64,000 nt of DNA from the NCBI RefSeq assembly GCF_058153355.1, contig NZ_CM177019.1; one strand, written 5' to 3'. A program made the position numbers and the translations under genes. Every line of letters begins with the position of its first letter. The stretch's first letter is position 1. Shown in pieces: positions 25,397-47,194 of this stretch. The notes under the pieces were generated by a model, which had not been told where the DNA came from, did not search any database, and saw only the letters and a program-made list of their open reading frames with translations.

Positions 25397-25882
25397 TTAT
25401 TTAACCTGTTTCAGTACGTCAGCAGTGATGTCTTTTACATCGCTGCTGTTGTAAGCAACGGCGTTTGCATCAACAACCAGATCGATATCCTGGCTGTTGG
25501 CAACGGATTTCACAGCAGTCTGGATACGAGTAACCAGTTTGCCGCGTTCTTCGTTGGAACGACGAGCGCGATCCTGCTCAAAAGCCTGCGCTTTCTGAGC
25601 AAAAGTCTGGCGCTGAGCCATCACGTCTTTTTCCAGTTTGGTACGATCGCTGCCCGCTTTCATGGACTGCAGCTTTTTCATTTTAGCCTGCAGATCGGTT
25701 TCCATACGCTGCAGTTCGCTGGCACGGCCTTTGAACTCATTTTCCAGCGTGTTAGAAACACCGGTTTTCTGCGCTACCTGCTGGAACAGGCTGCCCATAT
25801 TGACGATTGCAATTTTGTCAGCCGCCTGAGCAGAAGTTGCCAGTGCTAAACCGAGACCTGCAGCTAATAACCACTTTTTCAC
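25397..25882 (-). CDS. skp: periplasmic chaperone Skp (OmpH)
   Basis: 161-aa ORF with signal peptide and coiled-coil; recognised as Skp. Confidence 0.96.
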
Positions 25883-26003
25883 AATAAACTCCTTACCATC
25901 CCATTTGCACCGGAGGGTGCAGTTCTTTGCGTGGCCCGGCGATCTTATATTGATCGCCTAAAGTCATCGCTACACTACCACTACATTCCTTTGTGGAGAA
26001 CAC

Positions 26004-28454
<2,451 letters not shown>

Positions 28455-28465
28455 CTAACTAACTC

Positions 28466-29818
28466 TCATAACCGAGAGAAATCATTGAAAAGTGCAAGCC
28501 CCATTAACAGCACCAGCAGAATCGAGCCAATGCGATAACAAAAGTCTTGAACCCGCTCGGATACCGGTCCGCCCTTGATCTTTTCGATCGCAAGGAACAG
28601 CAGATGCCCCCCATCAAGTACGGGCAACGGAAACAGGTTAATTATCCCTAAGTTCACGCTAATAAGCGCAAGAAACGGCAGGTAATAAACAACCCCGAGT
28701 TCCGCTGTCATCCCAGCCCCCTTGGCGATAGAGATCGGCCCACTGAGGTTGTTCAGTTTCACATCACCGGTGATCAATTTTCCCAGCATACTGACCGTCA
28801 GCTTCATCAGCTGCCACGTTTTGTCCGTGGCTTCGACGATGGCGTTGAACGGCCCATACTGGCGTACAACTTTATACTCATCTGGCAAAGGAATGACTTT
28901 CGGCTCAATACCGACAAAACCAATCGCCTTACCATTACCCGGTTTACTCTCCGGGATTAATGTCAAAGACAAGGGACTCCCCTGTCTTTCGATTTCTAAC
29001 GCTAAGGATTTACCCGGGTTATCCCGGACAAGCATCACAAAGGTCACCCACTGCGTTAAGGGCTGACCATCGACTTTAACGATCCTGTCGCCTGCTTGCA
29101 AACCTGCCTTGCTTGCCGCCGAGTTTGGCTGCACATTTTCCAGTACAGGTTCAATTTGCGGGCCACGAGGACGAATCCCCAGCGAAGATACCGGATCTTC
29201 TTTATCAGGCTCAAACGCCCAGTGACGTAAATCGAGCTTTACATCCCGTCGTTGGTCGCTGCCAAATGGCGCTACCGTAATGGTGGTGCTTTCATCGCCA
29301 ATTTTATCGACCAACTGCAAACGCACGGCATCCCAATCAGGCGTTTCGATACCATCTACGGCTTTTAGTTCCGTACCTGGTGCAATTTGTGCTTCCGCAG
29401 CTATCGAATTGGCTGCTATTTCGCCAACCACCGGACGTACGCCAGGTACACCAATAATAAAAACCAGCCAGTAGGCAAAGATAGCAAAAATGAAGTTTGC
29501 AACCGGACCTGCGGCAATAATCGCCGCACGTTGGCCGACAGATTTATTATTGAAGGCATGGTGGCGGAGTTCCGGAACAACCGGTTCTGCGCGCTCATCC
29601 AGCATTTTGACATAACCGCCCAACGGGATCAGGGCGATGACATATTCGGTGCCTAGCTTATCAGTTCGGCGCCAGAGCGCCTTGCCAAAACCTATTGAGA
29701 AACGCTCAACGCGAACACCACAACGCCGGGCAACCCAGAAATGACCAAATTCATGCACGGTGATAAGTACACCCAGTGCAACGATGAACGAAGCCAAATC
29801 CCAGAGAAAACTCAGCAT
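28466..29818 (-). CDS. rseP: regulator of sigma-E protease RseP (site-2 protease)
   Basis: ORF track 28466-29863; recognised RseP starts [11 protein letters not shown] (450 aa); HExxH motif (HEFGH) and PDZ domains. Confidence 0.95.
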
Positions 29819-29829
29819 ATTACCTTCCG

Positions 29830-30687
29830 TTAAAGCGTCCTGAATACCAGTAACAACAAGCAAGCAAAGACCGGTACCGCAGCCGTCAGACTATCAATAC
29901 GATCTAAAATACCACCGTGTCCTGGAATTAAATGACCGCTGTCCTTAATTCCTGCTTCACGCTTAAACATACTCTCGGTCAGATCGCCGAGCACTGAGGC
30001 TAACGCTGCGACAATAGAGCAAATGAGTAAGGTGACGGGAGCGACGTCGAGATTCGCCCACATGCCATAACCCCATGAGATTACCGCTGCAGTCGCGAGC
30101 CCACCGATAAAGCCTTGCCAGGTTTTACCCGGAGAAACCTTCGGTGCCAGCTTATGTTTACCAAACAATTTGCCAAACATATATGCGCCAGAGTCAGCGC
30201 CCCATACCAGGATCATGACATAGAGCAGCCATATTGCGCCACTGTAATGATTCTCGTCGTAGTGCCAGGCCCGTAACGCCAGCATGCCCCAGAAGAAGGG
30301 AACAATGGTTAGCACGCCAAAAATAATGCGCAATGTTTTAGAGTTACGCCAGATTGCTGCGGAACCTGGGTAAAACAGCACCAGCAATAGCGCGACAATC
30401 CACCAACCCAGCGAAGCCCAAAGTGAGATTTCAACCAGCGGTTGATGAATATTTCGGTGATATTCCGGCAACAGAAAAAGCATCAGCGCCAACAATAACC
30501 CACATAACACCGCCAACCATACTCGCTGCGAGCGAGTGGTAAAACCGCTAAGCTGTCCCCATTCCCACGCTGCCAGCATGCAGACCACCAGCGTTACAAT
30601 GGCGAACCCCACCGGCGGCAACAGAAACAACGCCGCGATGACGACGGGTATTAACACAAAAGCAGATATCAGGCGATACTTCAGCAA
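29830..30687 (-). CDS. cdsA: phosphatidate cytidylyltransferase (CDP-diglyceride synthase)
   Basis: 285-aa hydrophobic ORF; recognised as CdsA. Confidence 0.95.
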
Positions 30688-43340: not shown

Positions 43341-44765
43341 TTACTGCATTAACAGATAGATGGTGCTGTCGCCGCGCTGAATATTCAGTGCCAGCACAGA
43401 CGGTTTGCTGTCGAGAACTTTACGCAGTTCAGCGATGTTTTTCACTGCCTGCTGGTTCGCACCAATAATCACATCACCTTTCTTCAGGCCGATCTGCGCA
43501 GCCGGAGTGCCCGTTTTCACGTTGTTCACCACCACGCCCTGATCTTTGCCTTTGTTGCTCATCTCAGCGCCTTCAATGCCGTTGAAGATGGTGCTGGAAT
43601 CAACCTGATTCTGGCTGCTCTGCTGCAGTTCCAGGTTCACGTTAACCTGCTTCCCGTCGCGCAGTAAGCCCAGGGTCAGTTTGCTGCCTACCGGCATAGT
43701 GCCCACCTGAGCACGCAGTGCGGCAAAGCTGCTGATTGGCTTACCGTTCAGTGAGGTGATCACATCACCCGCTTTAATGCCCGCTTTCGCGGCGGAAGAG
43801 TTCGGCAGAACCTGGCTTACGAAAGCACCGCGCTGGGCGTCAACTTTCATCGCTTTCGCCAGATCGGAGTTCAGCTCAGTCCCCATAATACCCAGCTCAC
43901 CGCGTTTCACCTGGCCGTATTCCACCATCTGCGAGGTCAGGTTTTTCACCATGTTGCTCGGGATAGCAAAACCGATACCGATGTTTCCGCCGTCCGGTGC
44001 GAGGATCGCGGTGTTGATACCAATCAGTTCGCCGTTCAGGTTAACCAGCGCGCCACCAGAGTTACCCCGGTTGATCGCTGCATCGGTCTGGATGAAGTTT
44101 TCGTAGTTTTCAGCGTTCAGGCCGCTACGTCCCAGCGCAGAGACAATCCCGGAAGTTACTGTCTCGCCCAGGCCGAACGGGTTACCAATTGCTACGGTGT
44201 AATCACCCACGCGCAGTGCATCAGAATCCGCCATCTTAATTGCGGTCAGGTTTTTCGGATTCTGGATCTGGATCAGCGCGATATCAGAGCGCGGATCTTT
44301 GCCAACCATCTTCGCGTCGAACTTACGACCATCGCTCAGCTGGACTTTAATCACCGTCGCGTTATCAACAACGTGGTTGTTGGTGACGACATAGCCTTTA
44401 TCGGCATCAATGATGACGCCGGAACCCAGCGCCATGAATTTTTGTTGCTGGCCGCCGCCATTACCGCCCTGGCCCCCCTGGCAGAACGGAGAGCTCTGGA
44501 ACGGAGAACCTTCCTGGCAGAACGGAGAATCATCACCGAAGAACTGCTGGAAATTACGCGGCATACGCGGCGTATTAACGGTTGTGCTACCTTCTACGTT
44601 AATGCTGACCACTGAAGGCATCACCTTTTCGAGCATTGGTGCAAGGCTTGGTATCTGCTGGGCTGTCGTTGCTGAAGAAGTCTCAGCCGCCGTTGCAGAG
44701 AGCGGAGATAACGCCAAACCTAAACTCAGAGCCAGTGCACTCAGTGCTAATGTGGTTTTTTTCAT
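43341..44765 (-). CDS. degP: periplasmic serine endoprotease/chaperone DegP (HtrA)
   Basis: 474-aa ORF with signal peptide, trypsin-like protease domain (GNSGGAL) and two PDZ domains; recognised as DegP. Confidence 0.96.
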   Translation of the reverse strand: MKKTTLALSALALSLGLALSPLSATAAETSSATTAQQIPSLAPMLEKVMPSVVSINVEGSTTVNTPRMPRNFQQFFGDDSPFCQEGSPFQSSPFCQGGQGGNGGGQQQKFMALGSGVIIDADKGYVVTNNHVVDNATVIKVQLSDGRKFDAKMVGKDPRSDIALIQIQNPKNLTAIKMADSDALRVGDYTVAIGNPFGLGETVTSGIVSALGRSGLNAENYENFIQTDAAINRGNSGGALVNLNGELIGINTAILAPDGGNIGIGFAIPSNMVKNLTSQMVEYGQVKRGELGIMGTELNSDLAKAMKVDAQRGAFVSQVLPNSSAAKAGIKAGDVITSLNGKPISSFAALRAQVGTMPVGSKLTLGLLRDGKQVNVNLELQQSSQNQVDSSTIFNGIEGAEMSNKGKDQGVVVNNVKTGTPAAQIGLKKGDVIIGANQQAVKNIAELRKVLDSKPSVLALNIQRGDSTIYLLMQ

Positions 44766-44810
44766 GTATTTCAGTCTCGATTAACAGATAACGCAAAATT
44801 GCTGTGTTCT

Positions 44811-44838
44811 TCAGATTCGTTTTATAGCGCGAAGTTCC
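44811..44838 (-). promoter_or_regulatory. sigma-E-type promoter of degP (-35 GGAACTT, -10 TCTGA)
   Basis: Reverse complement reads cGGAACTTcgcgctataaaacgaaTCTGAag, matching the sigma-E consensus GGAACTT-N16-TCTGA, about 50-75 bp upstream of degP start. Confidence 0.7.
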
Positions 44839-44894
44839 GAACTAAAGTTTCTGCAAAAAGTAAAAATTTATTGTCCGTCTTTACAAAAGCCTGG

Positions 44895-46412
44895 TTATTG
44901 TTCTACGGCCATCAGACGTCGGTATTCATCCCACGCATAGAGGTCGGTCATACCGCTGATATAATCCTGTAGCAGGCGGCAGCGGTAATAATATTCCCAT
45001 AGCGGAAACTCAGGAGAATCTGACGGTAATTTACTGACAGCCTCGACATAGGCCAGCCGATGGCGCGTCGAGAGTTTGTGGAATAAGCGCGATTCAATAG
45101 GGAAACGTTTCACCCGTTCTTTTTCTACCAATTCAGTAAAGTCTGATAACGACAGGCTTAATAAAGGGCGATAAATCTCTAATAATCCGCTAATGACCCG
45201 ATAGCCCTGCAATTCAAGCTGCTCGACATCTGGATGGCTAAACACATGTTTTACAGCGACATTTTTATATAGCTTTAGAAGATCGCTGCATTCGCTGGCA
45301 TCTTCCAATAATGCATGATTAAACGTTCCGGCGAAAATCGCAGGCAGATTATCAATAAATCGTTGTGCCGCGTAGGGTACCAGTTTATTTAGGGTGTTTA
45401 CCCGTAAATACATAAAAAACTGATCTTCCGTACTGCGGCTTAAACTATTTGAGCGTGATTTTTCCCAGGCATTTTCAACCACCAGCGAAAAGAGCGAACC
45501 TTTCTCATGCTGGCCCCACGCTTCGTGCAAATGATGATAAAGCTGCTCAACGCTGAATATTCTTTTCTCTACCGCATCTTCAAGATCTGCCACACAATAG
45601 GAGATGTCGTCGGCAGCTTCCATAATCCACGTTAATGGAAAACGACTGTAAAGCGCCAAATTAAGTTCTTTACGCAACCGGGCAATATAGGCTTCTTCAG
45701 AAAGATAATAACCCGGCTTTTTCATTAAATAGTGATGTGTCTCAGGCGTTTCACCACGCCACCACGCCGGACGAGTATATTTTAAAATACCGCCAACCTG
45801 TGCCCAGGTGAGATTCATCCGCATCAATGTATGCACCAGACGAATGCCTTGTGCATTCCCCTCAAAATGACATAAGTCCTGACGTATTTTGCGCCGCAGC
45901 TCGTTAAGCGGTTCTTCCCCTTCCCGTAAACGTAATGCCGCCACGCTGCAGCGATCGTCAGTCAGAGGCTGGCTTTCGGCATCAGCCGGAAACAAACGCT
46001 GGCGAAACCAGTCATTTATCGCCGCTTCACCAAAATGACCAAACGGCGGATTGCCGATATCGTGCATCAGGCATGACATCTCAACAATACTTTCAAAGGG
46101 GCCGGTCAGTTCATCCAGACCATAATCTTCCAGTAATTTAAGCTCTTTCAGACGGCTTAAAATTTCTTTGGCGATGTAGCGCCCCACCTGCTGGACTTCC
46201 ATTGAATGGGTTAGACGCGTGCGCACGGCGGCATTTCGCTCCAGCGGAAAAACCTGGGTCTTTTGTTGCAGACGACGAATTGCCGGAGAGTTGATAATAC
46301 GCCCACGATCGCTCTCAAAGATTCGCAGGATCTCATGTTCGGTTTTAACGCCCTGTGGTGAACGGTAACGACGATGCCAGTTTATTTTTTTTCGGAAATC
46401 AATCTGTGCCAT
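44895..46412 (-). CDS. dgt: deoxyguanosinetriphosphate triphosphohydrolase
   Basis: 505-aa ORF with HD-domain motifs; recognised as Dgt. Confidence 0.95.
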
Positions 46413-46495
46413 GTCCTCTCCCGCGTGAGAAATACGCTTCCCCGTAAGCGCATGGTAAACTATGCCTTCAAATCGGGCTTATCGCGAGTAAATCT

Positions 46496-47194
46496 ATGAA
46501 AATCGGCATCATTGGTGCAATGGAAGAAGAAGTTACGCTGCTGCGTGACAAAATCGAAAACCGCCAAACTATCAGTCTGGGCGGTTGCGAAATCTATACC
46601 GGCCAACTGAATGGAACCGAAGTTGCGCTTCTGAAATCGGGCATCGGTAAAGTTGCTGCGGCACTGGGTGCAACTCTGCTGTTGGAACACTGCAAGCCAG
46701 ATGTGATTATTAACACCGGTTCTGCCGGTGGCCTGGCGCCAACGCTGAAAGTGGGCGATATCGTTGTCTCGGACGAAGCACGTTATCACGACGCGGATGT
46801 CACGGCATTTGGTTACGAATACGGTCAGTTACCTGGCTGCCCGGCTGGCTTCAAAGCTGACGATAAACTGATCGCTGCCGCTGAGGCCTGCATTGCCGAA
46901 CTGAATCTTAACGCTGTACGTGGCCTGATTGTCAGCGGCGACGCTTTCATCAACGGTTCTGTTGGCCTGGCGAAAATCCGCCACAACTTCCCGCAGGCCA
47001 TTGCTGTAGAGATGGAAGCGACGGCAATCGCTCATGTCTGCCACAATTTCAACGTCCCGTTTGTTGTCGTACGCGCCATCTCCGACGTGGCCGATCAACA
47101 GTCTCATCTTAGCTTCGATGAGTTCCTGGCTGTTGCTGCTAAACAGTCCAGCCTGATGGTTGAGTCACTGGTGCAGAAACTGGCACATGGCTAA
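46496..47194 (+). CDS. mtn: 5'-methylthioadenosine/S-adenosylhomocysteine nucleosidase
   Basis: 232-aa ORF starting [13 protein letters not shown]; recognised as Mtn (Pfs). Confidence 0.96.

Follow-up and report, generated by a model that had tools for sequence, protein, structure and literature searches.

The 129-bp spacer between dgt and degP very probably holds a three-level control region for degP, the gene of an envelope protease, composed of a sigma-E promoter, a conserved upstream module to which CpxR would bind, and a leader predicted to fold into a fourU RNA thermometer. The spacer corresponds exactly to positions 44766-44894 of the stretch analysed here, a 64-kb piece of DNA that is called the window throughout, and its features are collected in Table 1.

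The window comes from Escherichia coli. Queried with 501 bases from this region, 5,424 of 5,426 complete E. coli genomes gave a match, with 95-99.8% identity; every match falls under dgt and degP, and the coding sequence at 43341-44765 is annotated as degP in the matching genomes. The stop codon of dgt lies 10 nt before the upstream module, and a terminator scan of 44600-45200 gave no terminator-like hairpin separating dgt from degP. Three further genes which the initial annotation had placed in the same window as degP, namely rseP, bamA and skp, were all located there, on the minus strand.

Alignment of the spacer with that of MG1655 (K-12) is gap-free, with 125 of the 129 bases identical, and the four substitutions all fall outside the motifs and outside the conserved blocks. 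At 44830-44829 the window agrees with the cross-genus consensus of our alignment, CGCG, where K-12 has CAGG. Since the exact 129-bp allele is present in only one of the 5,424 complete E. coli genomes with a match, strain 2017-02-2CC, the window appears to represent an uncommon E. coli lineage. Codon 38 of degP (44652, minus strand) is ATA (Ile) in the window and ATG (Met) in K-12 DegP, a change within QQ(M/I)PSLAPMLEK, directly after the signal peptide.

Table 1. Features of the dgt-degP spacer and of related genes and sites in the window. Positions with a sign are relative to the main degP start; mean identity is identity to the window base in the 35-sequence alignment.
Feature	Position in window	Strand	Details
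skp	25397-25882	-	
bamA	26004-28436	-	
rseP	28466-29863	-	
degP (htrA) CDS	43341-44765	-	474 aa; NCBIfam NF008189 DegP equivalog, 934.5 bits (cutoff 720)
HtrA 5' UTR fourU thermometer	44760-44805	-	Rfam RF02700, 77 bits (gathering 52), E 4e-17, model 1-46/46
Main degP start (A)	44805	-	MG1655 180844; 40-nt leader; Kim 2012 and Cho 2014 TSS tables
Sigma-E -10, TCTGA	44811-44815	-	-10 to -6; mean identity 0.84
Second mapped 5' end (G of TCTGA)	44812	-	MG1655 180837; 47-nt leader
Sigma-E spacer, 16 nt	44816-44831	-	Holds CTATAAA (44827-44821)
Substitution, window vs K-12	44830-44829		GC for AG; sigma-E spacer
Sigma-E -35, GGAACTT	44832-44838	-	-33 to -27; exact match to Rhodius 2006 -35 motif; mean identity 0.90
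Stretch from module to -35	44854-44839		Mean identity 0.43
A/T-rich, UP-element-like stretch between activator module and -35	44839-44859	-	Poorly conserved
Substitution, window vs K-12	44859		T for C
Conserved upstream module, TTGTAAA-GACGG-ACAATA-AATT-TTTAC	44860-44886	-	-81 to -55; mean identity: TTGTAAA 0.97, ACAATA 0.88, TTTAC 0.95
Published CpxR site degP1, GTAAAGACGGACAAT	44870-44884	-	K-12: GTAAAGACGAACAAT
Substitution, window vs K-12	44875		G for A; N5 of CpxR box
dgt (dGTPase) CDS	44895-46412	-	NF003429 dGTPase, 894 bits; mean identity of 3' end 0.58
Published distal CpxR site degP2, GTAAATTACCGTCAG	45020-45034	-	Inside dgt CDS; -229 to -215

The sigma-E motif that had been read from the letters ahead of degP, GGAACTT-N16-TCTGA at 44838-44811 on the minus strand, is borne out in full. 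The sequence GGAACTTCGCGCTATAAAACGAATCTGA is an exact and the single match to this pattern in the 64-kb window, and the pattern was found in none of 100 dinucleotide-preserving shuffles; a relaxed pattern (N15-17, TCNRA) again gives this one site only, with 0.11 expected. The -10 element TCTGA is TCAAA-like, agreeing with TCAAA at three of five positions. Sigma-E promoters have spacers of 15-19 nt and a -35 that stands 25-28 nt from +1, and within these ranges a 16-nt spacer is strongly preferred, a distance of 26 or 27 nt from -35 to +1 is preferred, and the start is preferably a purine (Rhodius 2006). In the window, the spacer is of 16 nt, 26 nt lead from the -35 (44832) to +1 (44805), and TCTGA ends 5 nt before the start.

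Studies in E. coli agree with this assignment. degP was the gene most strongly induced by sigma-E, by 56-fold (Bury-Mone 2009), and both sigma-E binding and a sigma-E motif are assigned at the degP TSS (Cho 2014, PMC3923258). By analogy with this K-12 literature, transcription of degP from the allele described here would be expected to depend on sigma-E. A/T-rich UP sequences have been described upstream of sigma-E -35 elements (Rhodius 2006), and in the window the A/T-rich stretch between the module and the -35 contains an invariant TT (44857-44856) in otherwise poorly conserved surroundings. In a model of in vivo sigma-E promoter strength built on UP and core elements, degP was an outlier (Rhodius 2012); an activator input lying outside that model could explain this status.

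Published start maps place transcription where the motif predicts it. MG1655 TSS positions were carried onto the window through the gap-free alignment. Kim 2012 (PMC3415461) gave the degP +1 as MG1655 180844, with a 40-nt leader and an upstream sequence ending in ...GAATCTGAAGAACA, and Cho 2014 reported 180844 under exponential and glutamine conditions and 180837 in stationary phase. Lacoux 2020 observed that degP 5' ends respond to sigma-E induction, and proposed sigma-E-responsive ends at 180840/42, 2-4 nt upstream of 180844. The 5' ends of degP are heterogeneous across the published maps (180837, 180840, 180842 and 180844), and the +1 at 44805 fits the geometry preferred by sigma-E, so that the position of the motif is consistent with the mapped start.

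A second start at 44812, with a leader of 47 nt, was absent from the initial annotation. In the tables of Cho 2014 it is represented by 28 stationary-phase reads at 180837, with sigma-S beside sigma-E in the binding column. Kim 2012 mapped a start of Klebsiella pneumoniae to the homologous G of TCTGA (25 reads), and the E. coli end is the positional homologue of the Salmonella htrAp2 start, which has a 47-nt UTR and is reported to be constitutive at a low level (PMC5602114). These ends might derive from an overlapping promoter of the sigma-70/sigma-S type, which would start at 44812 and account for part of the basal, stationary-phase or Cpx-dependent expression of degP. CTATAAA (44827-44821), within the sigma-E spacer, is its candidate -10 by sequence, and TATAAA is moderately conserved (about 0.67 in the 35-sequence alignment). 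However, the candidate promoter has no recognisable -35, its TATAAA either lies 8 nt from the start or else leaves no T at -7, and a scan with the sigma-70 consensus around the spacer gave no promoter on the degP strand. The combined binding-plus-motif assignment of TSS 180837 in Cho 2014 is to sigma-E. The 5' end at 44812 could instead be a processing product of dgt read-through, given that no terminator was found between dgt and degP and that 28 consecutive nucleotides are tagged here in Lacoux 2020. We therefore regard an overlapping promoter as possible but, on the whole, doubtful.

Conservation across Enterobacterales extends the sigma-E promoter by a second, upstream element. Loci were anchored on the degP coding sequence (codons for MLEKVMPSVV) and not on the promoter, which gave 120 loci from Enterobacterales species genomes, 115 of them with 200 nt or more of sequence before the start codon. 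The pattern (G/T)GAACnn-N16/17-TYnnA was present 55-200 nt before the ATG in 104 loci, with a spacer of 16 nt in all but two (102/104). An alignment-free count found an exact GTAAA-N15-TTTAC, ending 20-21 nt before the -35, in 88 of these 104 loci, and a version with one or two mismatches in a further 11. The remaining five were scored as having none; four of these are Yersinia, three of which carry N14 variants.

The same picture is given by an alignment of 35 sequences from 33 genera, comprising the window, K-12, E. albertii and one sequence from each of 32 other genera. Spacer columns conserved at 90% or more form the blocks TTGTAAA, AATA and TTAC, together with the invariant TT, GAACT, TCT and the final A of the -10. 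The upstream module consists of three pentamers at 10-bp spacing, the outer two of which are inverted (GTAAA-N15-TTTAC), and TTTAC is as conserved as GTAAA and stands at a fixed distance from it. From the published 15-bp CpxR box one would expect weaker conservation, and in fewer genera, than this module shows. Neither a sigma-E motif nor GTAAA-N15-TTTAC was present in the 140-300 nt before degP in Yersinia artesiana, Y. thracica, Brenneria roseae and a Pluralibacter MAG, which in this differ from their congeners; these four cases may be due to inserted DNA, to a longer leader or to rearrangement of the upstream region.

The initial annotation had described the region at 44860-44885 as containing GTAAA/TTTAC pentamers of the kind bound by CpxR. 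Both pentamers were located by motif search, one at 44884-44880 on the minus strand and the other at 44860-44864 on the plus strand, which is TTTAC when read along degP. The window holds 168 copies of GTAAA and 74 matches to GTAAA-N5-GTAAA when two or fewer mismatches are allowed, and the intergenic site, with three mismatches, is not one of the 74; with such numbers, neither the pentamers nor the two-mismatch consensus were kept as evidence. A CpxR matrix (PSSM) was made from 39 published sites, leaving out the two of degP. In this matrix GTAAAGACGGACAAT scored 7.05 bits, which is within the range of known sites (2.7-20.0) and below the median of the 39 (13.9), and ranked 115 among the 127,972 15-mers of the window, so the leave-out matrix failed to single out the proximal site and was set aside as a discriminator. 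By sequence statistics alone the Cpx site is not above chance; what supports it is published work and conservation.

Table S1 of Zhao 2022 (PMC9600279) has GTAAAGACGAACAAT among known CpxR sites under the name degP1, with De Wulf 2002 as its source. The window sequence GTAAAGACGGACAAT is identical to it at 14 of 15 positions, the sole change being in the N5 spacer. The first half of degP1 is an exact GTAAA, the second half, ACAAT, matches GTAAA at two of five positions, and TTTAC lies outside the 15-mer. The CpxR character of the site is upheld by the match to degP1 and by conservation; the weakness of the box as sequence, with about 115 15-mers in the window scoring as well or better, tells against it. 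A fusion of degP to lacZ is under the control of both sigma-E and CpxR and has been used as a reporter of both, and degP expression decreases by log2 2.2-2.5 (4.5-5.7-fold) in a cpxR deletion. In one study, overexpression of CpxR alone did not induce degP, for which its authors blame limiting sigma-E. Extending this literature to the present allele, degP would be CpxR-dependent in the window as well.

A second published site, degP2 (GTAAATTACCGTCAG), is also listed in Table S1 of Zhao 2022 with attribution to De Wulf 2002. It lies outside 44766-44894 and was not mentioned in the initial annotation. degP2 scores 12.2 bits, rank 6 in the window, and is conserved only within Escherichia, a restriction that rules it out as part of the conserved core.

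When compared with the canonical CpxR boxes GTAAA-N5-GTAAA of cpxP, ppiA, yccA and motA, the proximal site has the first GTAAA exact, the 10-bp periodicity and a position within 100 bp upstream of the start. It differs in the second repeat (ACAAT, 2/5), in the third, inverted pentamer that follows 5 bp later, and in its score, 7.05 bits against a median of 13.9.

The inverted pentamer is the part of the module that admits another reading. TTTAC, and perhaps the whole of AATAAATTTTTACTTTTT, could be an UP element for the alpha subunits of RNA polymerase, in which case CpxR would use GTAAA-N5-ACAAT only. Rhodius 2006 found that the A/T-rich UP sequences ahead of sigma-E promoters peak around -48/-49 and -57/-58, and an A-tract followed by a T-tract is typical of strong distal subsites (Rhodius 2012); TTTAC, at -59 to -55, is inside such a tract. 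The published CpxR 15-mer ends before TTTAC, and the 15-mer of the bottom strand, GTAAAAATTTATTGT, scores too low to be reported by the CpxR matrix scan, for which the threshold was 3 bits. UP elements, however, are defined by A/T tracts and not by a conserved C:G pair, whereas in TTTAC both the A and the C reach 90% conservation or more among the 35 sequences, and 88 of 104 loci keep the pentamer 15 nt from GTAAA. Moreover, the main alpha-subunit area, from -54 to -34, is the least conserved part (0.43). Judged from the sequence comparison, TTTAC is better read as an inverted CpxR half-site, in view of its conserved C:G pair and fixed spacing, and we consider the UP-element reading rather unlikely.

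The Cpx system is widespread in Enterobacterales. It could still be argued that the inverted-repeat module is the site of a different regulator, for example a symmetric dimer, and that Cpx acts on degP for the most part indirectly or by way of the distal box. An inverted GTAAA-N15-TTTAC is unlike the tandem GTAAA-N5-GTAAA, degP is missing from the direct-target list of a CpxR ChIP-exo study, and the proximal box scores low (7.05 bits) in comparison with the 12.2 bits of the distal one. Nevertheless, degP1 belongs to the curated list of CpxR sites through its attribution to De Wulf 2002, the distal box is restricted to Escherichia whereas the proximal module is conserved order-wide, and no alternative regulator of degP was found in the literature examined. 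A regulator other than CpxR at the module seems to us highly improbable.

With CpxR as the preferred ligand of the module, the way in which it is bound can be considered. Activation would probably involve contact between CpxR and RNA polymerase from about -70, and the inverted TTTAC pentamer would have a part in it. The 25-bp element GTAAA-N5-ACAAT-N5-TTTAC, conserved across the order, might form a composite CpxR site at odds with the tandem-repeat model, with its three pentamers on one face of the helix and CpxR bound in both orientations, or as two dimers that share the central pentamer, at a constant 20-21 bp from a sigma-E -35; we put this forward as a speculative and unlikely arrangement. 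If true, the composite site could be the specific means by which a response regulator activates an ECF-sigma holoenzyme, and the overlapping start at 44812 may be served by it as well.

The third level of control is predicted in the leader, in a feature that was absent from the initial annotation. The RF02700 model begins at the mapped start base, 44805. In both the Rfam consensus and the RNAfold MFE structures, UUUU at 44798-44795 stands opposite the Shine-Dalgarno GAGA at 44778-44775, and the hairpin has a bulged C at 44793 and a 5-nt loop at 44788-44784. RNAfold gives the same core pairs with -3 kcal/mol, which at 37 C is no more stable than shuffled sequences (z = 0.99), and the leader structure is therefore supported by the Rfam model instead. 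Weakness of the modelled hairpin is what would be expected of a thermometer, and is not evidence either way. The 16 distinct leader sequences are too similar for covariation in the hairpin to be informative.

The htrA thermometer of Salmonella has been validated by SHAPE and reporter assays, and lies wholly inside the 40-nt leader (PMC5602114). Position 44774, in the hairpin base, is C in E. coli and U in Salmonella; this turns an A-U pair into A.C and, according to the model, would weaken the base. By analogy with the Salmonella sequence, the E. coli leader may be expected to open in a temperature-dependent manner. RF02700 matches at gathering level were found at the E. albertii, Salmonella, Citrobacter, Lelliottia and Enterobacter loci, and in none of 13 other genera sampled. 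Given this distribution, in few genera and none of the 13 others, the thermometer appears to be much younger than the promoter module.

The region as a whole is closely related to two known systems. It shares with the K-12 degPp, which is sigma-E-dependent and CpxR-activated, the locus and the dgt-degP order, as well as the -35, -10, spacer length, start and leader; the CpxR box is shared at 14 of 15 positions. The htrA region of Salmonella enterica, with htrAp1-p3 and the fourU element, has the same architecture and distances as the window, since its GGAACTT also begins 73 nt before the ATG and its leader is also of 40 nt, and RF02700 scores 77 bits in the window and 78.4 bits in Salmonella. 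The start with a 47-nt leader that was described as htrAp2 in Salmonella is present in E. coli data as well. In contrast, for the far-upstream Salmonella start inside dgt, Kim 2012 and Cho 2014 have nothing equivalent in their E. coli TSS tables. The htrAp1 start (215-nt leader) corresponds to about 44980 in the window, and degP2 lies 40-54 nt upstream of it. TATTAT at 44993-44988 on the minus strand, inside dgt, is at the right place for the -10 of an htrAp1-like start. An E. coli homologue of htrAp1 was rejected, given that TATTAT is within conserved coding sequence and that the tables of Kim 2012 and Cho 2014 have no start there.

The CpxR matrix also pointed to sites elsewhere in the window. 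The sequence GTAAAACCTGGTAAG at 26003-26017 (minus strand), rank 3 in the window, agrees at every base with the CpxR site published for skp, and straddles the bamA 3' end a short way upstream of skp. The best match of all is GTAAATCTATGAAAA at 46488-46502 (plus strand), with 16.6 bits, a site that Zhao 2022 (PMC9600279) also predicted, at 76 nt from dgt on its upstream side. The match is close upstream of dgt and overlaps the first bases of an mtn-homologous ORF, 46496-47194. To our knowledge, there is no evidence for Cpx regulation of dgt or mtn.

Taken together, the 129-bp dgt-degP spacer is very probably the complete degP control region. RNA polymerase with sigma-E would recognise GGAACTT and TCTGA, and transcribe from the A at 44805. 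Phosphorylated CpxR, the Cpx response regulator, would bind the conserved module at -81 to -55, which holds GTAAAGACGGACAAT, and raise transcription from a fixed position 20-21 bp upstream of the -35. Through these two inputs degP would integrate outer-membrane-protein stress, sensed by way of sigma-E, with periplasmic or inner-membrane stress, sensed by way of Cpx, and hence two envelope-stress pathways. The 40-nt leader would fold into a weak fourU hairpin, with UUUU paired to the Shine-Dalgarno, and its opening at high temperature would add heat control at the level of translation. Envelope-stress regulation of degP, taken as known biology in the initial annotation, is confirmed as such: this is the textbook degP control region, already known. 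degP is the classic gene of convergence of the sigma-E and Cpx pathways, and the window carries a natural allele of its control region, which yields a compact map of 129 bp with two stress-pathway inputs on transcription and a predicted translational thermometer.
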